From Clostridia bacterium (GTDB lineage: Bacteria; Bacillota; Clostridia; Oscillospirales; Acutalibacteraceae), in the NCBI GenBank assembly GCA_017524165.1, contig JAFWUH010000048.1, positions 4,359 to 68,358 on the forward strand: a stretch of 64,000 bases of DNA, read 5' to 3'. This document shows, piece by piece, positions 38,218 through 64,000 of this stretch. The notes beneath the pieces were generated by a model. The model ran no database searches, was not told where the DNA came from, and was given only the letters and a program-made list of their open reading frames with translations. The stretch's first letter is position 1. Every line of letters begins with the position of its first letter. Both the position numbers and the translations under genes were made by a program.

Positions 38218-40383
38218 CTATAGTCTGAATGTAATTTCGTTGTAAATGTTGCTGAACATGGATATCATTTGACCGATCAAGTTGACAAACAACATCATTA
38301 AGAAGACAATGATGATCATGCCAACCAGGGTCAATGCCACGGTGATCACATTCGTGCCGAATTGATAGTCGTGTGTGGAAAGAACGGCACAGAATAACAG
38401 GAACGCCGCCCACAAATAACCTACCGTAAAGAAAAAGTTCACAAACATCAATTCGTTATGTGTTACAAAGTTACTGAGTATCGTGGCAGGGATCGTGAAG
38501 AAGACGATCGGCATCAATGCGTAGCAAGAGGCAATATAAATATCCTTCAAACCGCCTTCGCCGTACATCAAGCTGGTTAAGCACCAGTTGGAAATGCACC
38601 AGATTGCCACAACGCCCAGGATCACAACCAAAGTCAAAAATAAATTGGAATCATTTTCCGGTTGACCGGTATAAATATAACCCAGTCCGACTGTACGGAA
38701 CAACAGCGAAACAATCACCAAAGCAAGAATCGTGTTTGCGCCGCGAATACTGCCGCGTTTGGATCGCTTTAATTCCCAGAAGCCGTCAAACGGATGGAAA
38801 ATCACATGGAATACATACATAAACTCCTGTGCAAAGGTGCGTTTGGCATCCCGTTGCATCGGTGTTTTTTTATTGAATTTATTTGCAAACTTAAAGAATG
38901 AGCTGACACCGAAGCAGATCAACACGATTACGATCGGGATCAATAAGATCCAGTTGCCCAAAAGCTGCCGACGGTATTCGGAATAAGCCAAAGAGTAGTT
39001 TTCCACATCGTTGGCAAGCTTGTAGTAATACATGGCTTCCTTGTACTTGCCTTGACGCACCATTGCGGTACCGATGCCGACATTGGCAAGGTCAAAGTTT
39101 GCGTTTTCTAAGAGGATTTGCTCATAAACGGGAACTACTTCCTCGTATTTCCGGTTATCAGACAACCGAATGGCTTCCTGTACCAGACTGCCGTAGCCGG
39201 TCGGAGAGAAGACCGTGATTTTTCCGGAGTTGGCGTCTAATGCAATCAGATTTTTTTCGGCGTCATATTCTACTGCGGCAAGTTGACGGAAGGTACCCAT
39301 TTGGTATCCCGAGCCGCCAAAAGCATAGAGCAGATTGCCGTTACTGTCATAGGTAAACAGCTTTCCGCGCTTCTGATCGGCAAGCGTATAAACCCCGTTG
39401 GGTCCGACCGCGACATCCACGATGCTGGACGGACCGTAAAAAATGTCGGTGTTGGTAGCATTTCCGTCGGTCGATAATGAAATTTCAACATCACCGGCAG
39501 GCGGATAGGCACCGCCGCGCACCAAAACATCTTTACCGCTGGAATTCAATTTTTTGATCATCGCATAGCGGTTATCGGTACTTCTGGAAGCAATGGTTTG
39601 AACGACCGCATTAATATTGGAATAGGTCGCTGTTACATATAAAAATCCTTTTTCATCAATGGTGATGTTGTTGTAGTTCGTCGGAACATAACTTAAGGTA
39701 CGCTTTTTCTGTTCTTTGGTCAAAAATTTACGCCAAAGTTTATCAATGACCGAAACCGTAACCTTCTGTGCACCGATAAAGGTGGAGAAATTTCCTTTGT
39801 CATCTAAAGCAACCACACCGTAGGTATTACCGGCTGAAACAATATAAACTCTGCCGGCACGGTCGACCGAAATCTTGATCGGAATATAGGAAAAATCCTC
39901 CGGCAACAGACTGGATTCCGGCTTTTTGATCACGCGGACACAGGTCAAATCCTTGGAAAAAACATAAATGTTGATGCCGGTCGAATCGGCAACATAAAGC
40001 GTGTCATCCTCGGTCATAAACAGTCCCGTCGGACGGGTCAACGCATAATCGACGCCGTCCAAAGAAAATTGTGTAAGCACACGGACCGAAGACAAATCTT
40101 TACTGATCACGACAACCCTTGCATTACCGGTATCGGCAACATAGATATTGCCTTCACTGTCTAAACAAAGGTCTTCCGCCGATGTAAATTGATTCAGCCC
40201 GAAGTCCCCCGCGGCAATCACCTTATTCGGCGTGTAGGCATGCGGTGATTCCACCGGATCGCCGTCAAAATTATAGACATAGGTCGAATAAGGAACATTA
40301 TCCGAAGCAGAGGCCGTTAAGGTCAATGACAGAATGAATGTCAAAGCCAAAATAAATGCTGAAAGTTTTTTGATGATTTTCAC
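38218..40383 (-). CDS. Membrane protein: signal peptide, NHL-repeat beta-propeller, TPR-like segment, C-terminal Yip1-type multi-TM domain
   Basis: GTG start. NHL-like blades GNIYVADTGNARVVVI, TLYVADSTGINIYVF, GRVYIVSAGNTYGVVALD, GFLYVTAT, GVYTLADQKRGKLFTYD, NLIALDANSGKITVF. TPR-like MVRQGKYKEAMYYYKLA. One TM (aa 478-497) then about 5 TM segments in aa 520-721. Confidence 0.7.
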   Translation of the reverse strand: MKIIKKLSAFILALTFILSLTLTASASDNVPYSTYVYNFDGDPVESPHAYTPNKVIAAGDFGLNQFTSAEDLCLDSEGNIYVADTGNARVVVISKDLSSVRVLTQFSLDGVDYALTRPTGLFMTEDDTLYVADSTGINIYVFSKDLTCVRVIKKPESSLLPEDFSYIPIKISVDRAGRVYIVSAGNTYGVVALDDKGNFSTFIGAQKVTVSVIDKLWRKFLTKEQKKRTLSYVPTNYNNITIDEKGFLYVTATYSNINAVVQTIASRSTDNRYAMIKKLNSSGKDVLVRGGAYPPAGDVEISLSTDGNATNTDIFYGPSSIVDVAVGPNGVYTLADQKRGKLFTYDSNGNLLYAFGGSGYQMGTFRQLAAVEYDAEKNLIALDANSGKITVFSPTGYGSLVQEAIRLSDNRKYEEVVPVYEQILLENANFDLANVGIGTAMVRQGKYKEAMYYYKLANDVENYSLAYSEYRRQLLGNWILLIPIVIVLICFGVSSFFKFANKFNKKTPMQRDAKRTFAQEFMYVFHVIFHPFDGFWELKRSKRGSIRGANTILALVIVSLLFRTVGLGYIYTGQPENDSNLFLTLVVILGVVAIWCISNWCLTSLMYGEGGLKDIYIASCYALMPIVFFTIPATILSNFVTHNELMFVNFFFTVGYLWAAFLLFCAVLSTHDYQFGTNVITVALTLVGMIIIVFLMMLFVNLIGQMISMFSNIYNEITFRL

Positions 40384-42182: not shown

Positions 42183-45056
42183 TTACCTATCAAATCCGAA
42201 TTCTTTGCGCTTTCTGGTGATTTCCTGGTTGATCATCTCAACCTGGGTCATCAAAGCGGCAGAGGGTTCCTTGCCGTCGGCATAAACAGAGGCAAACGCA
42301 AAGTCGATCGCACGCGCCGTGTAGTAACCGCCCGGAATTTCCGGTGTTCCTTGCAGGGCTGCAATTTGCTTCTGCAATGCAGTGTACTCATCGTTGGTCC
42401 AGGACATACTGCCCATTGCATTCAGGTTGGCAGTCGCTTGTTTTGCCGCCGCGCCCAAAACGCTTTCAACTTCTACCGCATAACGGCTTTGTGTAGCATC
42501 CGAAGTGACCCAACGGATGAATTCCCAAGACTTTTTACGGTCTTTCGCATCCTTCAGCATCATGATGCCGGTGCTGGCAGCCGGAGAAGTATAGTTGATT
42601 GAACCATCCGGTTGACGGGTGCCGGGCACCGGTTCCATTTTCCAAAGTCCCTTGATTTCGGAGGCAAAAATCGTCAACTGGTTGTAGGTCGGATACTCAA
42701 CAATGCCCAGCGGCATTTCCCCGCTTCTGAAACGGTTGGCAAAGTCATAGTCTACCGGGAAACGGTACAAGGTAAAGAGCTCCGACATTTTTTCAAAGCA
42801 TTCCACATTCAAATCCTGCGACATCGCGCTGGCGGTCAATTCTTTATTATAAACGGTGCCGCCCTGCTGATACAGGAACAGTTCCAATCCATACAGATTC
42901 AGGTTGGAAACAACTGCCGTTTTGGCATTGATCGGGAAACCGATATCCAACTTCTGCTGTTGCAGTTCCCAGGTGACTTCATAAAACTCGTCCCAGGTTT
43001 TGGGTGCTTTCAAATTCAGTTCCTCAAAAATATCGGTACGGTAGAACATCATTAAGAAAGACATGGTCTCCGGAATGGCGTAAACACTGTTATTAAAGGT
43101 AAAGGGTTCCATTGCAGCGGGATGGAATCGGCCGACAACCTCGTCAAAGCCCTCCATCTTGCTCAAGTCGACCGCCGCGGAACGAATCGCAAAGTCGATC
43201 GGGATGTGGGAAGCCAAATTCATTGCAACATCCGGACCCGTACCGGCTAACGCCGACGGCAACAGCGCCGTTGCGGCAACCAACAACACATTTACTTTAA
43301 TGCCGGTTTCCGGCGTAAAGGATTGTTCGGTCAACTTCTGCATGATCTGACTTTGTTCACGACCGTTGATCATCCAAACGGTTACGACATTATTGTTCGC
43401 GTAATCTTCCTCGGAGATCTCGGTAGCAAATGATTGATAATCAGCAAAATAACTTAAGACAAAAACCTTGATTTTAAACCACAGATTGCGGAAGAAAGAA
43501 TCCCCTGCATGCGGCACTTTACTTCCCTGCGGCACAAAATAAATTCGGTCGATATCCATCGGCTGAATCATGATGCCTTGTAGCCAGGTGCCCAACGCCG
43601 AGAGGTTATCTTTATAGGTAGAGAACAATTCGGAAATCAATTCCGGATCTTTTTCGATCTGTTTGAGAATAATGATAATTTTTCCGATGGTGTTGGTAAA
43701 ATCACCCTTGACATCGGTTAAAGCTTGCAATCTGTCAATTGCATTTTGAAGTTCGGTCGCCTGTTTTTGGAAATCCTTTAAAACATCCGGGATCAACTTT
43801 TCAAAACCGTAATCACGGTAAATATCCGGGTCGGGTCCCGTGATCATCAAAATTCGACGGTAGTCGATATTTAAGGAAGCAAGCGATTTCTGAACCTTTT
43901 CGATCACTTCTGCCATATCGCCCAAGACAATTTCCATTTTGACGGTATGTTTTCCTTTTTCCAAATAGAAAAGATACGGTTTGTCTTCTTCGCCGATCGG
44001 CTGAACCGTCCAGGAGTTTGCATATTTAAAACGCAGTCTGGAGGCTTCCTCAAACGGACAAACATCGTCAATATAAAGCTTTCTCGAAACAAAACCGCCA
44101 TCGTAAGAATCCTGCTTGAAACGCGGTGCAATTTCGTATGTACCGGTTTCCGGAACATCCACTTCCCAGGTGATCCACTGTCCGACCGCAGACCATTTGT
44201 CGCCGCTGATCACATTGAGTCGGTTTTGCAACGGATCTTGCGGATAGGTTGCAGAGGAACTTCTGTCGGTCGTCGGATAAATCGTAAAGGACGATTTTTC
44301 AACGGCGTCTTCCGCTTCGACCGTAAGGATCTCTTTGCCGGATCCTGCAGCGGGATGTTGCTTTTGATAGTCCGCGTAGGAAATCAGCGTTTCTTCCGGG
44401 AAAAACCGCAGTTGGCAGACTTCCAACAATTCCTTATTGGCTTCTAAAGAAACTGTATGTGTTCCCTCGCTGAGATAAATACCCAAATTGCCCGAAACAT
44501 AACTGTTTGCATCATGTAAGTAATAGTTTAATCTTCTCGGCTTTTCTATTTGTTCCGGCATGACATCATTGCCGCGGGAATCAACCTTGATCTCGCCATC
44601 CTCAAACACGCGGGAAAACTCGATGAACCGCGCTTCATCAAACGGAACCGCACCGTCAATAGACAAGGTTCTCTCGATCGCGCCGTTTTTGGACGGTGTC
44701 GGGAAGTATTCTATCTCCAGCTGATAATAACCGGCTGAAGGCACCGAAAACTGCCAAGTAACCGTGCTGTCACTGCCGGTCTGCACCGTGCCGTCGGCGC
44801 TACCTGTAACCGTGCCGGTCGACGCGATGAAACTGCCGCCGGGGATGATGATTTCACCTTGAGCCGCCGGCTTCTCCCCAATTGTCGCACGATAATTGGT
44901 ATAGTCAAATTCCCGGCTTTCAGCAATCCCGGTTACATCTATACCGGTACTTTCCCCTGTCGGCTCATCTGCCAACGCCGGCATACAGGAAATGCTCATC
45001 ACCATTGCAAGACTTAACGCAAACAGTCGAATCCCATGGTTTTTCCCTGTTTTCAT
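42183..45056 (-). CDS. 957-aa extracellular solute-binding protein with two N-terminal CBM6/35-like beta-sandwich domains
   Basis: Start moved to the second ATG (45056; GGAGG with a 7-nt spacer) because the first ATG is only 1 nt from the SD. Signal peptide MKTGKNHGIRLFALSLAMVMSISCMPALA. Two units with W-x-[FV]-x-VP-x-[AT]G-x-Y-[QE]-[LI] and R-x-L-x-ID-[GD]. The C-terminal half is a family-1 SBP (paralog of 1..2461). Confidence 0.8.
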   Translation of the reverse strand: MKTGKNHGIRLFALSLAMVMSISCMPALADEPTGESTGIDVTGIAESREFDYTNYRATIGEKPAAQGEIIIPGGSFIASTGTVTGSADGTVQTGSDSTVTWQFSVPSAGYYQLEIEYFPTPSKNGAIERTLSIDGAVPFDEARFIEFSRVFEDGEIKVDSRGNDVMPEQIEKPRRLNYYLHDANSYVSGNLGIYLSEGTHTVSLEANKELLEVCQLRFFPEETLISYADYQKQHPAAGSGKEILTVEAEDAVEKSSFTIYPTTDRSSSATYPQDPLQNRLNVISGDKWSAVGQWITWEVDVPETGTYEIAPRFKQDSYDGGFVSRKLYIDDVCPFEEASRLRFKYANSWTVQPIGEEDKPYLFYLEKGKHTVKMEIVLGDMAEVIEKVQKSLASLNIDYRRILMITGPDPDIYRDYGFEKLIPDVLKDFQKQATELQNAIDRLQALTDVKGDFTNTIGKIIIILKQIEKDPELISELFSTYKDNLSALGTWLQGIMIQPMDIDRIYFVPQGSKVPHAGDSFFRNLWFKIKVFVLSYFADYQSFATEISEEDYANNNVVTVWMINGREQSQIMQKLTEQSFTPETGIKVNVLLVAATALLPSALAGTGPDVAMNLASHIPIDFAIRSAAVDLSKMEGFDEVVGRFHPAAMEPFTFNNSVYAIPETMSFLMMFYRTDIFEELNLKAPKTWDEFYEVTWELQQQKLDIGFPINAKTAVVSNLNLYGLELFLYQQGGTVYNKELTASAMSQDLNVECFEKMSELFTLYRFPVDYDFANRFRSGEMPLGIVEYPTYNQLTIFASEIKGLWKMEPVPGTRQPDGSINYTSPAASTGIMMLKDAKDRKKSWEFIRWVTSDATQSRYAVEVESVLGAAAKQATANLNAMGSMSWTNDEYTALQKQIAALQGTPEIPGGYYTARAIDFAFASVYADGKEPSAALMTQVEMINQEITRKRKEFGFDR

Positions 45057-45071
45057 TGTCATGCCTCCTAT

Positions 45072-46490: not shown

Positions 46491-49400
46491 TTACTCTTTT
46501 TTCTTTTTGAAGAGTAAAAAGCCAAGCACGCCGGCCGCAATCACGGTTACGCCCAAAGCGATTCCGGTCGCAATGACCGCGCGAACCAAGCCCTTCGGGA
46601 ATGCCGATAAGGCCTCGGCACGAAGACCGCCGTTCAACTTATTACCGACATTCTTGCCCGGCACGACGCTGCCGCCGATGCTGATGGTTTGACCGCCGGT
46701 TGCGGTTGCACTCTGTACCCCTGCTGTGGTGACCTGCAGATTATCCAGATTGATGACGCAATCCGGAGATCCGGGCTCTGCGCCGATGAAGTAGATACGG
46801 AAATAATTCATTGCTTTGTTATTCAGTCCGCCGCGCGCCTGATTCTGCGGTTTATCCAAATTAAAGCAGAAATGGTACCATTTATTTCCAACATCGCCGG
46901 CATTGAAATCTGCCGCCAGTTCGGGGCAAGCCGTCAGGATGGTAGACTTCATGTAACGGTTGGACTCAACATCGCAGGTGCCCGAGGAGGTCAATTCGAC
47001 CATCCATCCGGTTGTCGTGTTAAGGAAGGTAATATCCGAAAGGAACAGATCGAATTGCAGATAGTGATAATCCGAAATATCAATCGGCTTTGCCGGACGG
47101 TAAACGAGTTCTTTCAGAATACCGTTCTTCGCCGTAACGGTAATGGAAGCGTCACCCTCGGTTTTATTGTTTTTATCCGGCATAACTTCCTGACCGGAAG
47201 CCGACCAACCCGCCGCGCTGTCCGCGTTGTTGATGATCAGGTAATCCTTGGTACGGATCACATCGGGTTGTTTCTCACCCTTTGTGAATTTCATGTTATC
47301 AAACTTCACGGTGTAATCCGGCGTACCCTCTTTTACTTGAACAGAGTAGAAACGGAAATAGTCAAATCCGGTCTTATCCAAACCGCCCTTGACAGAAGCG
47401 TGCGGACGATCCAGATTCAGCTTGAAGTGATACCACTTGTTTCCGCCCTTGCCGCTTTCAACATCATCCGCAAACGAGGGGGAAGCTTCCAACATGGACG
47501 ACTTGGTGTACCGGTTGGATTCCTTGTCACAAACCCCGGCGGAGGTCAACTCAAACATGGTGCCCTCGCAGGCTTTAAACCAAGACAAATGAGAGAAGAA
47601 GACATCGAATTCCAAATACTGATAATCCGAAATATCCAACGCTGCTTTCGGTTCGAAAGAAATTTGCTTTAATACGCCGCCTTTAGCAACTGCGGAAATA
47701 GAACTGTTTCCTTCTGTTTTTTGTGCAAAATCCATGGAAACGGTCGTTCCGGAGGCTTTCCAGCAGGAGTCAGTTTCGGCATTGGTCATCCACACCGAGT
47801 TATCGTCGATCTTCTTACCGTAGGAAAGATCCGGAGAAATCACATTGCCGCCATTGTTGCCCTCTCCATTGGTGCCTTCGCGGGTAAACTTCATATTATC
47901 CAAGCGAACATCAAAATCTGATGTAGTTTGCGGAGCGCCGATCGCGAAGAAGCGGAAATAGTTCAATTTTTGGGCATTCAAACCACCGCGTGCGGTTGTT
48001 TGCGGAGCAGCCAATTTCAATTTAACATGATACCAGCCCGGTTGCGTAGAACCTGCCACACCTGCCGAATAGAGTTCCGGCACATTGTCGCGCAGATAAC
48101 CCTTCATATAACGGTTGGATTCGTTATCCGAAGATCCGGAAGAGGTCAACTCGAACATGATGCTTTCCGAAGTATTGAACCATTCCATATTTGAAGTATA
48201 TAAATCAAATTCCAAATAATCGTAGGAAGAGACATCTAACGAAGTACCCGGAGAATAGACCAACTGCTTCAACACACCCTTCGGTGCCGTAGTACCGACA
48301 GAGGCTTTTCCCTGTGTAAAGAGCGCGGTATCGTTTTGAACGGTAGAGCCGGAAGAACTCCAACCGTTTTTATTTTCAGCATCGTTGAACCACATATTGC
48401 CGTTTTTATCCAAGCTTCCCGGCGTGGTATCTTCGATCGCCTCGGCATACACATCCGTTTCACTGCCGGGTGTCGGCAATGTATCGGCACGCAAGGTCAT
48501 TGCGTCAAAGAGCACGATACCATTTTGATTATCCTCTACGCAGATTTGTAAATCCGCCAAGGTCTTCAAAATCGTAGTACTGTCGGGCAAAACCTTGCCC
48601 TCTGCATTCACCAAACGCTTGAAGTTAAAGGTGTATTGCTGATAGTCGCCGGCGTTGATTTCATAAGCCGTTGACAGCGAAGATCCGGTCACCGCGGTTG
48701 CATAGAAGGTTTCGCCTCCCGCAACCAGTCGAACCGACAGTTTCTTCGCGCGAACATCCGGGTTCTTCGCATAAAGCGAAATACCGGTATAGTGCTGATA
48801 CTGTTTGATCATTCCGCCGTAGTTCAAGACCGGCGCGAGCACTGCGGTGTCTGTACCGCTGATCTCATAGGAGAGTTTTGCCGCGGCAATACCCTCATAA
48901 CGGCTTTCCGCATCGGCTGTAACAACCGCATTCGCAGAAGTGCTGAAGGTCGGCTTGAATCCGGCGTCCAAAGAAGTCAACGCTTCCCATGTTGTGGCAC
49001 TGTCGCAGTAGCCCCAATCGGTTGAAAGATCATAGATTGACGCCACTTTGTCACTGCGATAAGGAACTGCAGGAATGCCCAACGAGTTTGCCAAATTGGC
49101 AACCATGTTGAAGGAGGACCATGCATAGGTCACCGCAACCGGTGCGGCAACGGCGTCACTCCAAACCTCTACGGTATTCGGCGAGGTGATCTTGGCATTT
49201 GCTTTGACAAAAACGCGGGAAGCGTCCGCAACAGCAAAGCCATGCAAGGTATCAGATGAATCATTGATCTTTAAGGTGTCGCCGACATTCTTAAAGGTCA
49301 AAACCGCTTTGTTGCCGTTCATTTGAACCGAAGCAACACTCGGTGCGGTAAATCCGTCGGCATTGCCGACGCCGTATACCCCGGCAAGTACCGCCGCCGC

Positions 49401-52400
49401 AAAACGGTCGGCAACATCTTTCTTGCTGTTGGGGTGGATCGGGTCGGGGTTATTGATCGGTGGATCTTTATATTGCAGGGACAAATCGTAAATCGGGATT
49501 TGGATCAACTTCGAGGATGATTTTTCGGCAACACGATTCAACATTTCAGCAAAGGTTGCCAAAACCGTAGTATAATCGTTTGCACGGATGCTGGCGTTGT
49601 TATAGGGCGCCAGATGTGCACAGACAAACGGCATATTACCGTTTTCAAAGCCGAAAAGTTTGCTGTAAGAGTCGATCAATCCGTCTAACGCATATTCATA
49701 GAAAGTATTATACCCGTCTTCGTCGGCATACTTGACATTGCTTTCGCCCTGATACCAAAGGACGCCGCTGATTTCCACACCGGCAAGCGGCGCGATTTTC
49801 GCGTTAAATAAGGTAGTCAAATAGGTCCAGTTAGAGGTCGTTTGATCCAACTGTTCCGCGGTTTTATAGATACCGCGACTCTGCAGAACGCTCTTGACCT
49901 GCGGCGTATTTTCAATAACCTCCCGCGGCATCCACGATTCAATGACCGATGCGCCCTTGGCGGTATTGAGGAACCCGACCGGGACATTCAACTGTTGCTG
50001 CAGTTCTAAAGACATATAATAGGCAATTGCGGAGATATATTTTACATCGACCGCGTTGGAGCCGTCCGCCCACTTGGCGCCTTCAATTTCACGAACCGGA
50101 GAAGAAGGCAGAATCGCCGTTACACCGCCCGGAACCAACGGAATATCAAAGAAGCGTACCTTTTCATTGAGCGGGATCAGAGAATAATCGTAATCCTTGA
50201 TCGTTTGCAACACGAAATATTCCATGTTGGACTGACCTGCGGCAAGCCACAATTCACCGATCAGAATATTCTCGATCGTTTCGGTCAATTTATCTTCGAC
50301 ATAAATTTTAATGGTATACGGGGTATACCCACCGGCGCGAGCAGCAAAAGCCAAAGAGAAACTGCCATCGCTCTGTGAAACGGTATTGACTGTCTCCAAA
50401 ACATTTGTGCCGTCCGACAATTCGGCTTTAATATTCTGTCCCGCCGTCTCCACATTACCGAAAACATTCATCGGCTTGTTTTGTTGGAACATCATGCCGT
50501 TGCTGAAGTAGGAAGAAACGATATGTTCCTCTTTCAAATTGGTGATCGCAATATCTTCAATGCGGACATTAAAGGTATCATCACCCGCGGCACGGCTGTA
50601 GAAACGGAAATAATTAATGTTGGCAAGATTCAAGCCGTTATCGTTCGCCGCATTGGAAATCAACAACTTTAAGTTGTTCCAACCGGACTTCAAGCCGAGC
50701 TTCGGCACCGACCAGTTAGCTTCCTGCTTATCGCAATTTCCCGAGGAGGTCAATTCGATCTGACCTTCATTGGTGAATTCCAGAATATTGTCACTACCGT
50801 CGGTGTTTTCAATATAAATCCGCATGGTCAAATACAGTTCATTCTTCTGATAAGCTGATAAATCCAGCGAGAACTGGTTCAGCACAAAGGAGAAGGTGCC
50901 GGTAGTATTGTTCTTCTGCATACTGCCCGGGATCTGCCAAACGCCCTCCTGCGATACCTCGGACGGCTGACCTTCGCTCAAAACCGCAATGACATTGTCA
51001 ATTTTAAAGATGGCATCCGGCAAGGTGGTATCCAACGGTGTAGTCGGCAGTGTATAGAAACAGAAGGTCTTGAAGTTAGTCAAATTGACCTTGCTGTCAG
51101 ACGGCACTTCCACCGATGCATGATACCAGTTGTTCCCGCTTTCGGTGATGGTCATATCCGAAAGGGTGAACCGTTCGGTCTGACTGCCGTCACCGATTTC
51201 AACGCCGATATAGTTTTCATAAGACGATTGGATGGCGTCCCACATTTTAAAGGAAGCGTCATTATTTTTAAAGCATTGAAAATCAAATTCAAACTGATGG
51301 TATTTGGATAGATCCAAACCGGAAGTATCGGTATAAGTTAATTTTCTCAACGCGCCGTAACCGGTGTAAACATAAACCGAATTTCCGTTCAAACCGGAGG
51401 TGTTCAGTTGCATATTCGCCGCATTGCCCGAATAAGACCAACCATCCAACGAATTACAGTCACTGACGGTAATGGATTCGTCCACCACCACATTTTCCTT
51501 ATCAAAATGCGCTACCAAATTATCCAAACGATAGATCGCCGTATTGACCGACTGATCTAATGTTGCCGTCGTATTCGTATAAACCGAGAACGAAGCAAAT
51601 TTAGAAAGATCAAGCTTTCCGGTTGAGGAAGTGGGATCCAAAGCGTTGATGGAAACATGATACCAACAATTTCCAAGTGCTTCCACCTTCCACTTGTTCA
51701 AACCGTAGGTGGCGGTCACGGTACCGTCGGAAATTTCGACTGCGATTTTATCGCTGTATGCCGCTGTGACCTCACTCCACATATCGTAGGCAGTGTCGTT
51801 CTGCTTCATACACATCATGTCAAATTCCAAGGTGTTATATTTAGACAGATCGACCTTATCCGAAAAGGTCATTTTACGCAATGCGCCGTAACCGGTATAA
51901 ATATTAATGGCACTATTGGTCATACCGTTGGTAGAAATGCCGACATTTCCAATGTTGCCGCCGTATCCCCAGCCGGTCAGATCCTCACACTGAGAAAGAA
52001 CCAAATCGTCCGTTTCCTGCGGAACTTCGGGTTCCTCCTCTTCGGAACGAAGGTTGTGCGCCACAATGTTATCCAGACGAAGGTGACCGTTGCGTACCGA
52101 AGCGCTGACTCCGCCATCTTTGGTGGAAAAATGGAAAACGGTCATTTTGGTCATATCAAAACTGCCGGTTGTGCTCGACGGATCGTCCAAATTGATCGAG
52201 AAATGATACCACAACGGGCTTTCGGTATTCTGCGCCACCGTCATTTTAGACAGACGGTAAACATTATAATCCGTTGCAGAAGAACCGATTTTGACATAAA
52301 CATCGTCATTATAAGTGGTCTTGATTTCATCCCACATACCGGCATTACCGCCCGTGTGCATCATAACATCCCATTCGATGTTCTGATAGGGAGAAATATC

Positions 52401-52655
52401 TAACGGCGTTGCCGCAGTGTAATCGCAATCGCGAAAGGCGCCACTGTTGATATCGCAGGCTATGGCACTGCCGGTGCGGCCGTTCGCATTGATTGCCAAA
52501 TTATTGCCGGAGGTTTTGGTCCATCCGGTTAAATTTTCACAATCACTGATAGTTAATGTATTCGGCAAATCATCCGTTGCCCATGCAGGGATCATGGTGA
52601 GCCCGGACAGAACAATGGCAATTGCACAAATAATCGCTATGACTCTTTTATTCAT
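46491..52655 (-). CDS. 2054-aa cell-surface multi-module protein: signal peptide, 3 type-A modules, 1 type-C module, SASA/DUF303-type SGNH esterase, further beta-sandwiches, 3 type-B modules, C-terminal TM anchor
   Basis: AGGAGG SD. Signal peptide MNKRVIAIICAIAIVLSGLTMIPAWA. Esterase motifs GELWLAAGQSNMEY, LWYQGESN and DPIHP. C-terminal LVRAVIATGIALGVTVIAAGVLGFLLFKKKKE. Confidence 0.85.
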   Translation of the reverse strand: MNKRVIAIICAIAIVLSGLTMIPAWATDDLPNTLTISDCENLTGWTKTSGNNLAINANGRTGSAIACDINSGAFRDCDYTAATPLDISPYQNIEWDVMMHTGGNAGMWDEIKTTYNDDVYVKIGSSATDYNVYRLSKMTVAQNTESPLWYHFSINLDDPSSTTGSFDMTKMTVFHFSTKDGGVSASVRNGHLRLDNIVAHNLRSEEEEPEVPQETDDLVLSQCEDLTGWGYGGNIGNVGISTNGMTNSAINIYTGYGALRKMTFSDKVDLSKYNTLEFDMMCMKQNDTAYDMWSEVTAAYSDKIAVEISDGTVTATYGLNKWKVEALGNCWYHVSINALDPTSSTGKLDLSKFASFSVYTNTTATLDQSVNTAIYRLDNLVAHFDKENVVVDESITVSDCNSLDGWSYSGNAANMQLNTSGLNGNSVYVYTGYGALRKLTYTDTSGLDLSKYHQFEFDFQCFKNNDASFKMWDAIQSSYENYIGVEIGDGSQTERFTLSDMTITESGNNWYHASVEVPSDSKVNLTNFKTFCFYTLPTTPLDTTLPDAIFKIDNVIAVLSEGQPSEVSQEGVWQIPGSMQKNNTTGTFSFVLNQFSLDLSAYQKNELYLTMRIYIENTDGSDNILEFTNEGQIELTSSGNCDKQEANWSVPKLGLKSGWNNLKLLISNAANDNGLNLANINYFRFYSRAAGDDTFNVRIEDIAITNLKEEHIVSSYFSNGMMFQQNKPMNVFGNVETAGQNIKAELSDGTNVLETVNTVSQSDGSFSLAFAARAGGYTPYTIKIYVEDKLTETIENILIGELWLAAGQSNMEYFVLQTIKDYDYSLIPLNEKVRFFDIPLVPGGVTAILPSSPVREIEGAKWADGSNAVDVKYISAIAYYMSLELQQQLNVPVGFLNTAKGASVIESWMPREVIENTPQVKSVLQSRGIYKTAEQLDQTTSNWTYLTTLFNAKIAPLAGVEISGVLWYQGESNVKYADEDGYNTFYEYALDGLIDSYSKLFGFENGNMPFVCAHLAPYNNASIRANDYTTVLATFAEMLNRVAEKSSSKLIQIPIYDLSLQYKDPPINNPDPIHPNSKKDVADRFAAAVLAGVYGVGNADGFTAPSVASVQMNGNKAVLTFKNVGDTLKINDSSDTLHGFAVADASRVFVKANAKITSPNTVEVWSDAVAAPVAVTYAWSSFNMVANLANSLGIPAVPYRSDKVASIYDLSTDWGYCDSATTWEALTSLDAGFKPTFSTSANAVVTADAESRYEGIAAAKLSYEISGTDTAVLAPVLNYGGMIKQYQHYTGISLYAKNPDVRAKKLSVRLVAGGETFYATAVTGSSLSTAYEINAGDYQQYTFNFKRLVNAEGKVLPDSTTILKTLADLQICVEDNQNGIVLFDAMTLRADTLPTPGSETDVYAEAIEDTTPGSLDKNGNMWFNDAENKNGWSSSGSTVQNDTALFTQGKASVGTTAPKGVLKQLVYSPGTSLDVSSYDYLEFDLYTSNMEWFNTSESIMFELTSSGSSDNESNRYMKGYLRDNVPELYSAGVAGSTQPGWYHVKLKLAAPQTTARGGLNAQKLNYFRFFAIGAPQTTSDFDVRLDNMKFTREGTNGEGNNGGNVISPDLSYGKKIDDNSVWMTNAETDSCWKASGTTVSMDFAQKTEGNSSISAVAKGGVLKQISFEPKAALDISDYQYLEFDVFFSHLSWFKACEGTMFELTSAGVCDKESNRYTKSSMLEASPSFADDVESGKGGNKWYHFKLNLDRPHASVKGGLDKTGFDYFRFYSVQVKEGTPDYTVKFDNMKFTKGEKQPDVIRTKDYLIINNADSAAGWSASGQEVMPDKNNKTEGDASITVTAKNGILKELVYRPAKPIDISDYHYLQFDLFLSDITFLNTTTGWMVELTSSGTCDVESNRYMKSTILTACPELAADFNAGDVGNKWYHFCFNLDKPQNQARGGLNNKAMNYFRIYFIGAEPGSPDCVINLDNLQVTTAGVQSATATGGQTISIGGSVVPGKNVGNKLNGGLRAEALSAFPKGLVRAVIATGIALGVTVIAAGVLGFLLFKKKKE
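46728..48407 (-). repeat. Three tandem type-B CBM-like modules (about 175 aa each)
   Basis: Shared motifs GVLKQ-[LI], S-x-Y-x-YLEFD, MFELTS-[SA]-G-x-x-D-x-ESNRY-x-K, WYH-[VF]-K, NYFR-[FI]/DYFRFY and DNMKFT. Confidence 0.7.
49371..50267 (-). other. SASA/DUF303-type (sialate O-acetylesterase-like, SGNH) carbohydrate esterase domain
   Basis: GQSNM encoded at 50223-50237 (checked against the nucleotides). LWYQGESN. D-P-I-H (DxxH) near the domain end. Confidence 0.7.
50979..52556 (-). repeat. Three tandem type-A CBM-like modules
   Basis: Modules begin DCENLTGW, QCEDLTGW and DCNSLDGW. They share TGYGALRK-[ML]-T, DLSKY-x-x-[LF]-EFD, WYH and [IY]-[YF]-[RK]-[LI]-DN-[LV]-[VI]-A. Confidence 0.7.
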
Positions 52656-52670: not shown

Positions 52671-53501
52671 TCACGAGCGTTTATTCTTACGAACAAACAA
52701 GATAATCATCACAACAATGACAGCCACAACAACCGCTGATACAGCAATTTCAACAATCAGGAGTGTTTTCAACTGACCGCTCAGCGCCGCGTTGGTGTCT
52801 TCTCTTTTTACCACATAAACGCTGGCTTCCTCTGACTCTTTCGTGTTCTCTGTTTTACTGGCATCCTTTTCTTCCTCTTCAACCGCCGGTTTATAGTTAG
52901 AAGGATTATTGGTAAAACGCATATTGTCGATACGAACGGTATAATCCGGCGTCGTGGTGATCGGATCTACCGTATAAAAACGGAAGTAGTTAAAATTGGC
53001 TTTATCTAATTTTCCGTTTGCCGTTCCCTGCGGGTTATCCAATTCAAATACAAAGTGCCACCAGTTTTGCCGGTCTTCGATCGAACCGGTTGAGAACAGA
53101 TTCTTCAACACTTTTTTCATGTAACGGTTGGATTCCTTATCGCAGGTGCCCGAGGAGGTCAACTCAAACATGACCGAACCGCACTCGGTAAACCAGGTGA
53201 TATCGCTGAAATAAATATCAAATTCCAAATAGGAATACTTGGAAGCGTCCAACGGACTTTCCGGTGTATAAACCAGCTGGTTCAACTTGCCGTTGATGGC
53301 TGTTGCGCCAATCGAACCGGTTCCCTCGGTGCAATTTGATCCGTCGGTTTCCAACGCATCCATACCCTGACTGTTTGCCGCCCAATTGGCGGAACTGTCG
53401 CAATTATTTACGATCAGATCATCGGTACCCTCGGCAAATGCCGGCATACCGAGTGAAAAGATCAGGAGTATCACAGTTAAAAATACCGTAAACTGTTTCA
53501 T
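52671..53501 (-). CDS. 276-aa surface protein: signal peptide, one type-B CBM-like module, acidic linker, C-terminal TM anchor
   Basis: GGAGGAAAAA SD. Signal peptide MKQFTVFLTVILLIFSLGMPAFA. Module motifs KYSYLEFD, MFELTSSGTCDKESNRYMK, NWWHF, NYFRFY and DNMRFT. TM LLIVEIAVSAVVVAVIVVMIILFV followed by RKNKRS (nt 52692-52763). Confidence 0.85.
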   Translation of the reverse strand: MKQFTVFLTVILLIFSLGMPAFAEGTDDLIVNNCDSSANWAANSQGMDALETDGSNCTEGTGSIGATAINGKLNQLVYTPESPLDASKYSYLEFDIYFSDITWFTECGSVMFELTSSGTCDKESNRYMKKVLKNLFSTGSIEDRQNWWHFVFELDNPQGTANGKLDKANFNYFRFYTVDPITTTPDYTVRIDNMRFTNNPSNYKPAVEEEEKDASKTENTKESEEASVYVVKREDTNAALSGQLKTLLIVEIAVSAVVVAVIVVMIILFVRKNKRS

Positions 53502-59409: not shown

Positions 59410-59448
59410 CAAAATGAAGAACATTTTTGGCGATTTTTCAAAAAGTTA

Positions 59449-59477
59449 TTGCAATAAAAAGGATGATGTGTTATAAT
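59449..59477 (+). promoter_or_regulatory. Near-consensus sigma-A promoter of the FAD-oxidoreductase gene
   Basis: TTGCAA (59449-59454), 17-nt spacer, TGtTATAAT (TATAAT at 59472-59477). Confidence 0.6.
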
Positions 59478-59486
59478 ATAGAAAAA

Positions 59487-59498
59487 TTTGTATTATTT
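59487..59498 (+). promoter_or_regulatory. Copy of shared element TTTGTATTATTT (exact)
   Basis: Starts 10 nt after the -10 box of the oxidoreductase promoter, an operator-like position around +4 to +15. Confidence 0.45.
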
Positions 59499-59507
59499 GG
59501 TGATTCT

Positions 59508-60812
59508 ATGAAAATTTCTTATGAAAAAAGTATCCCGGTAAAGTACGAAACGGATGTCTTTGTTGCCGGCGGCGGACCTGCCGGTGTTGCGGCGGCATAC
59601 ACTGCGGCAAAGAACGGTGCTTCTGTTTTTTTGGCAGAAACATTCGGCGCGTTTGGCGGTGCCGGCGTTCATGCCTTGGTGCCGGCATTCATGCAGTTCG
59701 GTGACGGCGTTAATTTTTTGGCAGGGGATGTCGGGCATTATGTCCGCGATTTTCTCCGCGAAAATGCCCCCGAAGAGTATAAAAAATTCTGTCCTGACAG
59801 TATTCCGGTGGAAGTCTTAAAGCTCTGCTACGATAAAATGTTGGTCGAAGCCGGCGTGCAGTTTGAGTTTTTTTCCCCTGTTTCCGATGTCATTGCCGAA
59901 AACGGACATATTCAGTATGTCATCTGTGCCGCAAAGGGCGGCAGTTATGCCGTTAAAGCCAAAACCTTTATCGATTGTACCGGTGACGGCGATCTTGCCG
60001 CACTTGCCGGTGCAGAATTTGCTAAAGGTGATGAAAACGGCGATATGATGGCGGCAACGCTTTGCGCTCTATGGAACGGTATTGATTGGAAAAATGTTGT
60101 CCGCCCTGACAGCCGTCGGCTGGACGACGCCTTTGCCGATAAGATCTTTACCAACGAGGACCGTCACCTTCCCGGCATCTGGCCGATCAGTACCTCGACC
60201 GGCGGTTCCAATGCCGGACATGTTTATGATATCGACGGTACGACCGCTGAATCCCTGACCAGAGGAATGATCGAGGGAAGAAAACAACTTCTTGAATATC
60301 GTAAATACTATAAAGAGTATCTTTCGGGCTATGAAAATTCCGAGCCGGTTATCAGCGGAACCCAAATCGGTGTTCGCGAGACCAGACGGATTATCGGCGA
60401 TTATATTTTAACTGTTGATGACTTTCTCAACCGTTCCAGTTTTGAAGATGAAATCGGTCGTTATGCATACCCGATTGATATTCACTCCGGCAAAAATTCT
60501 TCGGCAGGATATGCTGAATATGCTAAAAAATTTGCGGAACTGCGTTACAAAAAAGGCGAAAGCTACGGCATCCCCTACCGTTCACTTTTAGTGAAAGGTA
60601 TCGACAATTTATTGACCGCCGGCCGTTGTATCTCGGCAGACCGTTCGATGCAGGCTTCGGTTCGTGTAATGCCCTGCTGCTTTATTACCGGTCAAGCCGC
60701 CGGCACTGCCGCCGCTTTGGCGCAAGATAAAAACGGTGAAACACGGGCGATTGATATACAACAACTTCGCGCCGTGCTGAAAGAAAACGGTGGATTTATT
60801 CAAGACAGATAA
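59508..60812 (+). CDS. FAD-dependent oxidoreductase (FAD_oxidored/PF12831-like), cytoplasmic
   Basis: Start moved to ATG 59508 (MKISYEKSIPVKYETDVFVAGGGPAGVAAAYTAAKNG, dinucleotide-binding GGGPAG). DCTGDGDLA motif. About 434 aa. Confidence 0.75.
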   Translation: MKISYEKSIPVKYETDVFVAGGGPAGVAAAYTAAKNGASVFLAETFGAFGGAGVHALVPAFMQFGDGVNFLAGDVGHYVRDFLRENAPEEYKKFCPDSIPVEVLKLCYDKMLVEAGVQFEFFSPVSDVIAENGHIQYVICAAKGGSYAVKAKTFIDCTGDGDLAALAGAEFAKGDENGDMMAATLCALWNGIDWKNVVRPDSRRLDDAFADKIFTNEDRHLPGIWPISTSTGGSNAGHVYDIDGTTAESLTRGMIEGRKQLLEYRKYYKEYLSGYENSEPVISGTQIGVRETRRIIGDYILTVDDFLNRSSFEDEIGRYAYPIDIHSGKNSSAGYAEYAKKFAELRYKKGESYGIPYRSLLVKGIDNLLTAGRCISADRSMQASVRVMPCCFITGQAAGTAAALAQDKNGETRAIDIQQLRAVLKENGGFIQDR

Positions 60813-60893: not shown

Positions 60894-63800
60894 TTAAGAA
60901 GCGTAACCACTCATAACCCTCTTCATGTGAACCAAGCCACGAACATCCAAAGAAGATTCATTATCATTGCGCTTTGCAGCTTCAAAGAAGTATCCCTGCA
61001 ACGAATTATTGCCAAGCAAGTGCTGACGGAAGCGAACCAGGTCGGTTGCGCCGCGAACACCGTCGCCGTCCAGATCACCGTAAACGATGGCGTAAACGGT
61101 CTTGGTACCGTTGCTTGCATAGTCGCCGGTACCAATTGCGGCACCTGCCGCCAAAGCGGTATTGCCACGATAGACGGTTACCGAGGAGGCAAATCCATTT
61201 GCCGAAAGGAACTGCGAAATGGTCTGACCAAGCGTTGCTTTTACCGAAAGAATTTCGGTTGCAATTGCAGTACCGAGACGAATATCATCCAAGTGGATCG
61301 TACCGGCTGTGTTAACAGTAAACTTCAACACATTGGAGTTGACGGCGGTTAAGGCGTTCGCCGCGGAAACAGCTGTAGTTCCGGCAGCGGTTGTCTTTAA
61401 GTTGGTCAAATCAAAGGTGTAGGTGGTAAATCCGCTGTTTGCCGGCAAAGTAACGGTTGTAGCGCCGTCTGTAGTGCAGACAAAGTAGCTGGAATTGCTG
61501 ATATTCAAAGAGAAGGTCTTCGCGGTATTATCATCGTTCTTAACCTTTACAGACAAGTATCTGTAGTTGCCGAGTTTGTTTGCCAACATGGTCTTCAGAC
61601 CGAGTACCGGGCCCACTGCGGCGGTTCCGCTGGAGGATACAACCTTTACAGAAGAATTACCCTGCGCCTTGACGCCGGTATCAAATGTAACGGTAGCGGT
61701 ACCGGATTTCTTATCCCATGTTGCAACACTTTCGCCTTTGCAGTTTGCGCCGGCGCTGGTGTTGTCAGCGATCCAAATGGTCGAATGATCCGCATTCATC
61801 CAGTCGTTGTCACCGACATGAACCGATGCAACTTCATCCGAACGGAACGGAACGACCGGCAAACCGAAGGAATTCTTCAGGTTCGCGTTCATATTGAACG
61901 AACTGAACGCATAAGCGACTGCAACCGGATTGTTGATCAACGGGCTGTAAACTTCAACCGTATCGTTGGCAATGATCTGAGCATAGGCATTACCGAAGAC
62001 ACGGTCACTGCCGCAGATGGTAAAGCCTTCCAAGTCGGAATTTACATCGCGCAAAGACAAGCCGGAGCCGACATTGTCAAATTTCACACGGATCTTATTG
62101 CCAACAACCGTCATGCTCTTGAAGGTGGCGGCGGCGAATCCGGGAGTGCCCTGATTATAGAATTTGCTCAAAATAGCAGCGGCAAAATTCTTTCCAACCG
62201 GCTCTTTTGTGCGCGGGTGGATCGGGAAGTTATCCGAGCAATATTCCAAAGACTGGTCATAAATCGGAATCTGAACCATCGAATTCGGATGAGCGGCGCA
62301 TGCTTTAGACATGGCTTCGGACAACATCGGAATGGTAACATCAAAGTCATTTGCACGAACATTGTTGTAGTTATACGGTGCAATGTGGGCAAAGACAAAC
62401 GGCATATCGCCGGCGTTAAAGTTAAAGAGAACGCCCCAATCTTCTGCCATCTGTTTTAAGGCCGCTTCATAGAAGCTGTTGGTTCCGTTTGTGTCGGCAT
62501 ACTTGATATTGCTTTCGCCCTGATACCAGAGAACGCCGGCAATATTCATACCGCCAAGCGGCGCCAATTTGGAGTTGTAAAGTGCTGTCATACTGTTCCA
62601 GTTACCGGCAACCGCCATTTGCTGTTCGGTGCGATACAAGCCTTTTTTCTGCAAGATACTCTTAACAGTTGCATTGTTTTCGATGCTTTCGCGGGACATC
62701 CAGGTTTCAATAACCGAGCTGCCGCGGCTGACATTCAGGAAACCGACCGGGACATTTAAGGTCTTACGCAGTTCTAAAGCGGTGTAGTATGCAACCGCAG
62801 AAGAATAAATAACATTGGTAAAGGTGCTGCCGTCTGTCCAGTGAACTTCACGCATCTGCGCCGAAGAAGCACTGGTATCAGGTTCAACATCATAATACGG
62901 TGTCGCAGCAATGGTGCTGTTTGTGCCGCCCGGAACAGAGGGTTCCATCATGACGCGGATATATTGGTCTGCTAAATTTTTAGATGTAAACTCAGCCATT
63001 CTGCCGGCAAGATTTGTTGCTTCAAAAGAAGTACCGAGGAAGTATTCCATGTTGGACTGACCGGAAGCTAACCACAGTTCACCGATCAAAATGTTGCCGA
63101 TTTCTTTAACCACAGTACCGTCCATCAATACTTTAATAGAATAGTTATCATAGCTACCGGCACGGGCAGGTAATTTTACTTCCCAATTGCCGTCCGTGTC
63201 AACGGTGGTGTTGGCAGAGCTTACCAGCGTATTTGCTTTGTAAAGCTCAACTCTCACGGTAGAGCCGGTGCCACCCACACCCCAGAGGTTCATGGTCTTG
63301 TTCTGCTGGAACATCATGTTATCGGCAAAGAAGGACGGCATGACTGCTTTTTCCTTCTCATTCGTGAGATACATCTGTTCTACGCGAACGGTGTAAACAT
63401 CGGTATTGCCCGAAACCGGATTCAGATAAAAACGCATATAATTGACATCCGAAAGGGACAAGCCGTTATCATTGCTCGCGCTATCCAAAGCCAGATAAAG
63501 ATTGTTCCAACCGTCATGCAGATTCAATTTACCCAAAGACCAGTTTGCTTCATTTACATCCGAACCGCCCGAGCTGGTCAATTCTAACTGACCGCCGGAA
63601 AGCAGATTGCCGGTCTGACCGGGATTGGTCTTGTTCTCAATATAGATCTTTGCAACCAACCAAAGCGTGCTCTTGGTATATGCGGAAAGATCATAGGAGA
63701 ATGTATTCGAGCAAACATAGTTTGCGCTGGTGATGGTTTTCTCGTTCGGAGAATCAATCAAATTCCATTTCTGCGGTCCCGAAACAACAACGGTCTGTTT

Positions 63801-64000
63801 CTTGGTGGAAGCACAGAGGTTATCAATACCCATAAAGCCGTTAGCAACATCGCTGTTAATTGTGGTGCCTTGCGGGCAAACGGCAATGGTGAAGGTGGTT
63901 AACGCACTCGGATTAAAGCCGTTGTCCTGCGTAAAGGTATCCAGGTTGACCGCCATTTTGTACCAAGCGGCGGAAGAAGAGGAAACGACCAATTTGTCTA
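60894..64000 (-). CDS. Surface multi-module protein (N-terminus beyond the right window edge): type-A module end, type-C module, SASA/DUF303 esterase, beta-sandwiches, C-terminal dockerin. Paralog of the central part of 46491..52655
   Basis: The frame stays open to nt 64000. GQLELTSSGGSDVNEANW, VNYMRFY, GELWLASGQSNMEYF (GQSNM at 63048-63062), LWYQGESN, and dockerin GDLDGDGVRGATDLVRFRQHLLG. Confidence 0.85.
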   Translation of the reverse strand, partial: DKLVVSSSSAAWYKMAVNLDTFTQDNGFNPSALTTFTIAVCPQGTTINSDVANGFMGIDNLCASTKKQTVVVSGPQKWNLIDSPNEKTITSANYVCSNTFSYDLSAYTKSTLWLVAKIYIENKTNPGQTGNLLSGGQLELTSSGGSDVNEANWSLGKLNLHDGWNNLYLALDSASNDNGLSLSDVNYMRFYLNPVSGNTDVYTVRVEQMYLTNEKEKAVMPSFFADNMMFQQNKTMNLWGVGGTGSTVRVELYKANTLVSSANTTVDTDGNWEVKLPARAGSYDNYSIKVLMDGTVVKEIGNILIGELWLASGQSNMEYFLGTSFEATNLAGRMAEFTSKNLADQYIRVMMEPSVPGGTNSTIAATPYYDVEPDTSASSAQMREVHWTDGSTFTNVIYSSAVAYYTALELRKTLNVPVGFLNVSRGSSVIETWMSRESIENNATVKSILQKKGLYRTEQQMAVAGNWNSMTALYNSKLAPLGGMNIAGVLWYQGESNIKYADTNGTNSFYEAALKQMAEDWGVLFNFNAGDMPFVFAHIAPYNYNNVRANDFDVTIPMLSEAMSKACAAHPNSMVQIPIYDQSLEYCSDNFPIHPRTKEPVGKNFAAAILSKFYNQGTPGFAAATFKSMTVVGNKIRVKFDNVGSGLSLRDVNSDLEGFTICGSDRVFGNAYAQIIANDTVEVYSPLINNPVAVAYAFSSFNMNANLKNSFGLPVVPFRSDEVASVHVGDNDWMNADHSTIWIADNTSAGANCKGESVATWDKKSGTATVTFDTGVKAQGNSSVKVVSSSGTAAVGPVLGLKTMLANKLGNYRYLSVKVKNDDNTAKTFSLNISNSSYFVCTTDGATTVTLPANSGFTTYTFDLTNLKTTAAGTTAVSAANALTAVNSNVLKFTVNTAGTIHLDDIRLGTAIATEILSVKATLGQTISQFLSANGFASSVTVYRGNTALAAGAAIGTGDYASNGTKTVYAIVYGDLDGDGVRGATDLVRFRQHLLGNNSLQGYFFEAAKRNDNESSLDVRGLVHMKRVMSGYAS
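60906..61079 (-). other. Dockerin module (second repeat degenerate)
   Basis: GDLDGDGVRGATDLVRFRQHLL ... RNDNESSLDVRGLVHMKRVM. Confidence 0.65.
62157..63092 (-). other. SASA/DUF303-type SGNH esterase domain
   Basis: GQSNMEYF, GVLWYQGESN and FPIHP, collinear with the esterase domain of the 2054-aa protein. Confidence 0.7.

Follow-up and report, generated by a model that had tools for sequence, protein, structure and literature searches.

Carbohydrate-binding modules (CBMs) and surface glycan-binding proteins (SGBPs) offer the closest described counterparts of a set of protein modules that recur in the DNA analysed here, a 64,000-nucleotide stretch (the window) of contig JAFWUH010000048.1 from a Clostridia bacterium. 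Three of these modules lie in tandem at 50979..52556, within an open reading frame (ORF) of 2054 amino acids (aa) at 46491..52655 on the minus strand. The best structural neighbour is CBM11 of C. thermocellum Lic26A-Cel5E (1v0a, 6r3m, 6r31), which is likewise a beta-jelly-roll of ~170 residues and, also in a member of the Clostridia, belongs as a non-catalytic module to a surface or cellulosomal enzyme. However, the window modules are only 14–16% identical to CBM11, differ from it by a root-mean-square deviation of ~5 Å and have no sequence-level match in Pfam or the Protein Data Bank (PDB), and there is no sign in the window locus of the mixed-linkage beta-glucan that CBM11 binds. CBM28 and CBM30 (3acf, 1uww; 1wmx, 1wzx, 2c24; PF21582) are named families that a profile of the wider module family does reach (E 6e-4 to 0.014), and they share with it the strands '[YF]L.FD.Y' and, at the C-terminus, 'LDNI[RK]F', with Foldseek TM-scores of 0.48–0.57. 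Nonetheless, these matches are partial (55–100 residues), they are driven by general 'ELTSSG' members rather than by the sub-family that we call type A, and, as far as the alignments show, CBM28 and CBM30 lack its N-terminal DC..GW motif.

The closest functional analogy is the xyloglucan-binding domain of SGBP-B (PF18329; 6d2y, 7k44), a non-catalytic surface glycan-binding protein of a polysaccharide utilisation locus, although proteins of this kind are Bacteroidota lipoproteins with Ig-like stalk domains, whereas the carriers in the window are Gram-positive, anchored by a membrane helix or a dockerin, and have many tandem copies. In the xanthan locus of Ruminococcaceae UCG13, the enzyme RuGH5a has three tandem CBMs, all of which are needed for activity on the polymer, and the same locus has two GH38s and two carbohydrate esterases (bioRxiv 10.1101/2021.06.02.446819). 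We use RuGH5a as a working analogy and not as a claim of homology, in that it is a surface enzyme with tandem non-catalytic modules, from an uncultured Ruminococcaceae bacterium. The window also has two GH38s and two esterases, and a xanthan locus was considered and set aside, since the GH5, PL8, GH88 and GH94 of the UCG13 locus are missing and xanthan is thus not indicated. Comparison with Pfam, NCBIfam and the PDB sets the window modules apart as a candidate new CBM family, or a sub-family whose parent is undescribed, in the well-known superfamily of beta-jelly-roll CBMs.

Module copies in the window

A profile hidden Markov model (HMM) was built from seven complete copies and run on all six-frame ORFs of the window, with 'type A' and 'type B' used here as local sub-family labels; all module-bearing genes lie on the minus strand. 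The seven seed copies score E 3e-60 to 5e-70 against their own HMM, values that are good by construction, and a partial copy at the right edge, outside the seed, matches the C-terminal HMM positions 109–167. The type-A HMM adds four divergent type-B copies, three in the C-terminal part of the 2054-aa protein (match spans aa 1426–1591, 1627–1792 and 1807–1979) and one in a 276-aa ORF at 52671..53501. No unrelated ORF of the window scores better than E 0.3 in the six-frame search, and the recurrence is therefore far beyond chance. A profile of the general family, to which we return below, adds two 'ELTSSG' modules, one in the 2054-aa protein and one at aa ~78–212 of the protein cut by the window edge, both of them seed members of that profile. 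In total, the window has seven complete and one partial type-A module, four type-B modules and two more distant ELTSSG modules, in five proteins:

63807..64000, minus strand: C-terminal third of a type-A module truncated at the right window edge, in ORF 60894..>64000; HMM E 1.4e-8, not in the seed
63384..63776, minus strand: 'ELTSSG' general-family module of the edge esterase; general HMM E 2e-26
52902..53432, minus strand: single type-B module of the 276-aa ORF; type-A HMM E 8e-16
52050..52565, minus strand: type-A module 1 of the 2054-aa protein, aa 31–202; HMM E 7e-66 (seed); its counterparts in the orthologues P0004 and P0003, the first module of each, are 64% and 63% identical
51501..52016, minus strand: type-A module 2, aa 214–385; HMM E 3e-67 (seed); copy modelled with AlphaFold
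50976..51479, minus strand: type-A module 3, aa 393–560; HMM E 5e-70 (seed); 72% identical to module 3 of P0004
50541..50969, minus strand: general-family 'ELTSSG' module, aa 563–705, between type-A array and esterase; general HMM E 1e-30 (seed)
49596..50255, minus strand: SASA-type (PF03629) carbohydrate O-acetylesterase, aa 801–1020, the catalytic cargo; Pfam E 2.1e-8, 34.5 bits (cut-off 24.8)
47871..48404, minus strand: type-B module 1, aa 1418–1595, with a FELTSSGxxDxESNRY insertion; type-A HMM E 3e-11, general HMM E 2.5e-39
47268..47798, minus strand: type-B module 2, aa 1620–1796, the second modelled copy; type-A HMM E 1.2e-12
46707..47258, minus strand: type-B module 3, aa 1800–1983; type-A HMM E 1.6e-12
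46494..46592, minus strand: membrane anchor at the C-terminus of the 2054-aa protein, hydrophobic and with KKKKE after it, read from the translation
26934..27431, minus strand: single N-terminal type-A module, aa 43–208, of the 1240-aa beta-helix protein 23835..27557; HMM E 4.5e-63
23162..23707, minus strand: type-A module 1 of the dockerin protein (ORF 21854..23872); HMM E 3e-60; 47% identical to module 1 of the 2054-aa protein
22652..23155, minus strand: type-A module 2 of the dockerin protein; HMM E 9e-64
22133..22615, minus strand: type-A module 3 of the dockerin protein; HMM E 2.5e-66; the homologue fragment P0002 spans this module and the dockerin
21932..22087, minus strand: type I dockerin, aa 596–647, of this non-catalytic three-module protein; Pfam PF00404, E 2.8e-6

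The 2054-aa protein begins with a signal peptide, three type-A modules of ~170 aa, a shorter module with ELTSSGNCDKQE and the SASA acetylesterase, and continues with ~400 unassigned aa, three type-B modules of ~175 aa and the hydrophobic C-terminal membrane anchor. A shorter 'ELTSSG…GWNN' module, for which there is no Pfam model, stands between type-A array and SASA domain in both esterases of the window; the copy at aa 563–705 has no Pfam match and reaches only E 1.5 with the type-A HMM. In the 276-aa ORF, a signal peptide is followed by one module, an acidic linker and a membrane anchor, and the module is the whole ectodomain. In the 1240-aa protein, the remainder after the single module is a pectate-lyase-like beta-helix (PF12708, E 2.4e-20, in two stretches), and in the edge ORF the module fragment is followed by the ELTSSG module, a SASA domain and a dockerin-like C-terminus. 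In P0014, an orthologue of the edge protein, three type-A modules at the N-terminus are combined with SASA and dockerin, and the neighbouring genes are an FAD-oxidoreductase and a GH38, as beside the edge gene in the window; the cut gene therefore probably begins with a similar array beyond the window. The carriers are thus two SASA esterases, one putative beta-helix glycanase or lyase, one catalysis-free dockerin protein with three modules and one anchored protein with a single module. For the dockerin ORF, the mechanical GTG start overlaps the end of the beta-helix gene (23812..23872, minus strand), and an internal ATG (MKTIQLSK…), as in the database form P0006 (652 aa), is the more likely start.

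Pairwise amino acid identity among the window copies is 22–47%, which indicates old protein paralogues rather than recent DNA repeats; a recent tandem duplication at the DNA level was ruled out on the same ground. The type-B copies align over their full length with the seven type-A copies, and their insertion, FELTSSGxCDxESNRY, falls at the site of a short helix (DMWxxIxxAY) in type A. The motif order D-C-x-x-L-x-G-W, GYGALR, LE[FW]D, W[YW]H, LDN is seen in the alignments of the window copies. The residues invariant in all seven type-A copies are only C10, G15, W16, G31, Y87 and W118. Conserved positions, numbered as in module 2, are W16, Y43, Y51, Y60, W65, W80, Y87, W118, H120, R163 and D165.

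The first-pass annotation of this DNA had described modules recurring with a conserved order of motifs, and the HMM matches and alignments bear this out. It placed three copies in the dockerin protein and one at the N-terminus of the beta-helix protein, correctly in both cases (22133..23707 and 26934..27431), and the end of a further copy that it read at the right edge is the non-seed match given above. Its count of at least eight copies in four proteins holds for the type-A copies, all eight of which are real, but is an undercount once the four type-B and two ELTSSG modules and the fifth protein are included; similarly, the three modules that it saw in the 2054-aa protein are the type-A ones, and the three type-B copies at the C-terminus and the ELTSSG module were overlooked. 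The order of its signature motifs stands, although GYGALRK occurs in just part of the seven type-A copies, and LEFD and LDN-I are also found in CBM28. Its remark that the modules are confined to surface proteins fits a signal peptide in every carrier whose N-terminus lies in the window (four of five; the edge protein is truncated) and a membrane anchor or dockerin on four of five.

Comparison with named families

Searches with the window copies returned no named family. Pfam gave no match on the modules in the four whole proteins at E ≤ 0.1 or on the isolated window modules at E ≤ 0.01, NCBIfam gave noise only, far below its cut-offs, and a PDB sequence search with the seven-copy type-A profile gave nothing better than E 0.45, with chance matches such as titin and lipocalin. 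The names that NCBI gives to module-bearing proteins are 'hypothetical protein', 'dockerin type I repeat-containing protein' and 'sialate O-acetylesterase'. With respect to individual families, CBM11 has no Pfam match (four proteins, E ≤ 0.1; 84 isolated modules, E ≤ 0.01) and CBM11 chains are absent from both PDB profile searches; no window copy matches CBM30 (PF21582), and none of the 13 window modules matches SGBP_B_XBD (PF18329).

Among 84 module instances from the wider family, seven reach SGBP_B_XBD and three reach CBM30 in Pfam. Ten instances were inspected singly: nine are without a Pfam match at E ≤ 1, apart from a chance ParB_C in one, and the tenth matches SGBP_B_XBD over its C-terminal 100 residues (29.3 bits; cut-off 26.4). 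Among 55 full-length relatives, 7 match CBM30 in Pfam, with faint CBM30 matches on the relatives P0025 and P0029. A profile of the 84 sequences (A4), searched against PDB sequences, reached the following structures:

3acf, CBM28: E 6e-4
1wmx and 2c24, CBM30: E 7e-4, over 55 residues only
1uww, CBM28: E 0.014
1pmh, CBM27: E 0.026
6d2y, SGBP-B: E 0.056

The matches of this profile to CBM28 extend over ~100–150 residues, whereas the type-A-only profile gives none. The LEFD and LDN-I strands are common to CBM28, where 3acf has YLTFDFY and LDNIRFE, and two of the five signature motifs are thus fold motifs of the superfamily. At the level of sequence, the relation to CBM28 would fit superfamily-level kinship rather than family membership. 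A literature search found no prior description of these modules among new CBMs from the rumen or the Oscillospiraceae, or among combinations of GH38, acetylesterase and dockerin.

Predicted fold

We modelled type-A module 2 with AlphaFold2 from an alignment of the 11 window copies only and compared the model with the PDB using Foldseek. The model has a mean pLDDT of 94.9 and a pTM of 0.89, with ~13 strands and one short helix; a second model, of type-B module 2, has a pLDDT of 90.9. Both are almost all beta and form a beta-jelly-roll, the fold of the galactose-binding-domain-like superfamily, with TM-scores of up to 0.59. CBM11 is the best match of both models, at E 7e-5 and TM 0.57 (1v0a) for module 2 and at E 2.5e-6 and TM 0.57–0.59 for type-B module 2. 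Further matches, like CBM11 at a probability of 1.0, are to CBM16, CBM22, CBM28, CBM29, CBM30, CBM8 and the laminarin-binding CBM X584, and Foldseek also returns CBM-like domains of GH50 agarases, of endo-beta-N-acetylglucosaminidases and of a chondroitinase. Judged by these models, the modules are securely assigned a beta-jelly-roll of the CBM kind, yet one that is not near any solved family. CBM1, CBM2, CBM3, CBM5 and CBM10, of the flat-platform class that is called Type A in functional terms, are absent from the top 50 Foldseek matches of either model. The predicted structural neighbours are cleft-binding type-B CBMs, and the functional class 'Type A' is not supported.

A larger family

A word-indexed search with the seven-copy profile found two proteins only, both fragments of this genome or of a sister genome. 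We also searched 1.84 billion cluster representatives exhaustively with HMMER, using the alignment of the 11 window copies (A2) as query; this returned 283 proteins at E ≤ 1e-3, 121 of them at E ≤ 1e-10 and 31 at E ≤ 1e-30. Re-scanning the top 151 proteins gave 460 module instances, up to 10–15 per protein, with the series typically beginning directly after the signal peptide. Scoring the top relatives with the type-A HMM and sub-family HMMs separated three tiers: type A, with 58 instances, confined to 28 of these 151 representatives; type B, with 26 instances, mostly in proteins that also have type A; and the general family, with 507 instances and the consensus CDxxxGW … LEFDxYxSD … ELTSSGxxDxxE … GWNH … NYFRxY … DN.

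Profile-profile comparison with hhalign, after the groups had been independently realigned, joins type A to the general family (probability 99.5%, E 7e-23, 154 columns), type A to type B (E 3e-25) and type B to the general family (E 3e-43), and the general-family HMM scores the type-A copies of the window at E 1e-16 to 1e-3. Type A is without the ELTSSGxxDxxE motif of the general family. The hhalign results point to type A being a rare derived branch, with that motif lost, of a larger module family on Clostridia surface proteins, one that is nearly unannotated. Among the partner domains in 55 full-length relatives, dockerin is the most frequent (10), followed by cohesin (2), PF12708 (2), SASA (2) and GxGYxYP (1); with so few recognisable enzyme domains, the pattern fits binding or adhesion proteins.

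The absence of a named CBM family, which the first-pass annotation had reported from the motifs, agrees with the searches of window copies in Pfam, NCBIfam and the PDB. It had proposed an HMM built from the copies and a structure prediction of one module as checks: the former found no strong match to a characterised CBM, and the latter gave the CBM-like jelly-roll described above. Its wording 'Type-A', if taken in the functional sense, is not supported, because the best structural neighbours are all type-B cleft binders, and is harmless as a local name. The modules do not stand alone as a family but form a sub-branch of a much larger unnamed one.

Several relatives are observations in their own right. 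A 3075-aa protein in GCA_947627285.1 (locus L013, 8001..17228) has ~12–15 general-family modules and lies among PF12708, GH38, GH42, GH3 and ABC genes, the same enzyme set as in the window, which hints at a common substrate. Two further giant general-family proteins, of 2381 aa (L014, 425..7570) and 1963 aa (L015, 536..6427), lie upstream of a conserved gene pair for lipoprotein diacylglyceryl transferase (LGT) and an Rce1-like/CPBP protease; the pair is immediately downstream of the giant gene in L015, and two unannotated ORFs lie between them in L014.

Orthologous loci

Orthologous loci, sought with the whole 2054-aa protein as query, were found in metagenome-assembled genomes (MAGs) from the rumen. 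The closest of those listed is Oscillospiraceae SIG601 (L002, 67% identity to the 2054-aa protein), and Ruminococcaceae RUG11203 (L003) and RUG14768 (L001) have ~54% and ~53% identity. In both L002 and L003, the one-module gene corresponding to the 276-aa ORF is kept immediately upstream of the big esterase gene, and P0003 adjoins the same GntR/LacI regulator as the window protein. The number of N-terminal type-A copies differs among the orthologous esterases, with 6 in P0003, 3 in P0004 (L002), ~2 in L001 and 1 in L003; L006 is also among the orthologues of the 2054-aa protein. CBM arrays typically vary in copy number in this way, here from 1 to 6.

Between the window protein and P0004, modules 1–3 are 64%, 77% and 72% identical at the same position, whereas identity between positions within a protein is 31–41%. 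This pattern suggests that the positions are not interchangeable and that the module copies may recognise different epitopes.

Proposed function and alternative explanations

The module genes belong to two adjacent sugar-utilisation clusters that extend from ~21.8 kb to the right edge of the window. Their enzymes are two GH38 alpha-mannosidases, a GH42-like protein, two PF12708 beta-helix proteins and the two SASA esterases; the clusters also include a DUF5696 protein, two ABC importers with binding proteins, a GntR/LacI-type regulator, an FAD-dependent oxidoreductase and an NHL/Yip1 membrane protein, and a GH3 lies farther left (2712..4961). In this uncultured rumen bacterium of the Oscillospiraceae/Ruminococcaceae, the type-A arrays stand in tandem directly after the signal peptide of extracellular proteins. 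From the predicted fold, the sequence comparisons and this setting, we consider it fairly probable that the modules are non-catalytic glycan-binding modules for the polysaccharide of the locus, a dedicated role that the first-pass annotation had likewise suggested from the copy number and the presence on surface proteins. In such a model, each module would have a cleft on one sheet, as in type-B CBMs, and would bind there a part of the polysaccharide broken down by the locus, and tandem copies would give avidity and keep the substrate at the cell surface beside the enzymes; the arrays might perhaps also allow multi-epitope recognition. The catalysis-free carriers, namely the three-module dockerin protein and the 276-aa anchored protein, would be Gram-positive counterparts of surface glycan-binding proteins. 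Because of the two GH38s, two acetylesterases, two beta-helix enzymes, GH42-like protein, GH3 and two ABC importers, the substrate would probably be an acetylated, mannose-containing heteroglycan.

A more specific version of this model seems less likely than not: types A and B would form a new CBM family specific to rumen Oscillospiraceae, binding an acetylated alpha-mannoside polysaccharide that lacks a known binding module, with positionally conserved paralogues in each array that read different epitopes, and the 276-aa and dockerin proteins would be the first Gram-positive SGBP equivalents for it.

Some of our results weigh against glycan binding, or against the strength of the case for it. 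Non-glycan jelly-rolls, namely MAM (8a28), the ligand-binding domain of EphA, reelin, a haloarchaeal virus turret and a complex I assembly factor, appear in Foldseek at scores similar to those of the CBMs, and the fold alone is thus no proof of sugar binding; the TM-score to every solved CBM is only ~0.57. The sequence links to named CBM families are marginal (E ~1e-3, over partial length), no such link stems from the window's own copies, and the conserved motifs may be largely fold-determining rather than ligand-contacting. These non-glycan matches could be taken to mean that the modules serve protein-protein or cell-cell adhesion, in surface complex assembly or in attachment to rumen microbes, as MAM, ephrin-receptor and cohesin-like jelly-rolls do, and some relatives do have cohesin or dockerin domains. 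Nonetheless, the top-ranked and most of the Foldseek matches are CBMs, and sequence-level links lead only to CBM28, CBM30, CBM27 and SGBP-B. The modules are fused to carbohydrate esterases and glycanases within sugar-import loci, where dockerins already supply a protein-protein role, and we consider adhesion very unlikely as their function.

Alternatively, the modules could be inert spacers, a beta-sandwich stalk that projects catalytic domains from the membrane or through the envelope. Arrays between a signal peptide or anchor and a catalytic domain, three type-B copies directly before the anchor in the 2054-aa protein, a copy number that is free to vary among orthologues and giant relatives with 10–15 copies and no enzyme domain would all suit such a stalk. 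However, the type-A arrays lie at the anchor-distal end, where no stalk is needed, and modules are also found on dockerin proteins and singly on the 276-aa protein. The usual spacers are Ig/Fn3-like domains of ~90 aa, not 170-aa jelly-rolls with about ten conserved aromatics, and position-specific conservation across species argues for a position-specific function, so that a purely structural role seems quite unlikely. A last alternative concerns the name rather than the mechanism. The modules could be very divergent members of a CAZy family that already has a name, whether CBM11, CBM28 or CBM30 or a recent one without a Pfam model or structure, in line with the reach of the expanded profile to CBM28 and CBM30 (E ~6e-4 in the PDB), the Pfam CBM30 matches among full-length relatives and on P0025 and P0029, and the C-terminal LDNIRF motif common to CBM28. 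We regard this as unlikely: the window copies reach no Pfam or NCBIfam model even at E 0.1–1, the type-A-only profile finds none in the PDB, the TM-score to the best solved CBM is only 0.57, and the NCBI names of the carriers refer to no CBM family.

Should the modules indeed bind glycans, they would represent a new CBM family and would probably bring with them a larger parent family, of which more than 500 module instances were detected. At present neither Pfam nor NCBI annotation picks up these modules, and the proteins that carry them are labelled 'hypothetical protein' in MAGs of rumen and gut Clostridia. Since the modules recur in loci with GH38, beta-helix, GH42-like and acetylesterase genes, they could serve as a handle on, and as probes for, the target glycan. 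The gain for CAZyme annotation would be incremental rather than conceptual and would not surprise a CAZyme specialist.

Other features of the locus

Downstream of the SASA domain, both esterases have a further, very divergent beta-sandwich-like region, at aa ~746–911 of the edge protein (61266..61763, minus strand) and at aa ~1217–1314 of the 2054-aa protein; the general-family HMM gives E 1.4e-3 in the former and is not significant in the latter. A 1548-aa ORF at 5181..9827 (minus strand) has no copy of the module family and only a sub-threshold PA14 match.

Within the clusters, a 863-aa DUF5696 protein (35609..38200, minus strand; E 2e-155) lies inside the locus, and a full-text search found no paper mentioning DUF5696. 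Between two ABC-permease pairs, a 721-aa protein (38218..40383, minus strand) combines NHL/beta-propeller repeats with a C-terminal Yip1 domain, which is unusual for a sugar-import operon. In a 959-aa solute-binding protein (42183..45062, minus strand), SBP_bac_1 does not start until aa 572, and the extension before it has CBM35/Golvesin-like matches below threshold; judging from these matches, the protein may have glycan-capture domains of its own. Finally, the FAD-dependent oxidoreductase (59427..60812, plus strand; PF12831, E 3e-101) has a GH38 on one side and the edge esterase on the other, an order that is kept in the locus L009.

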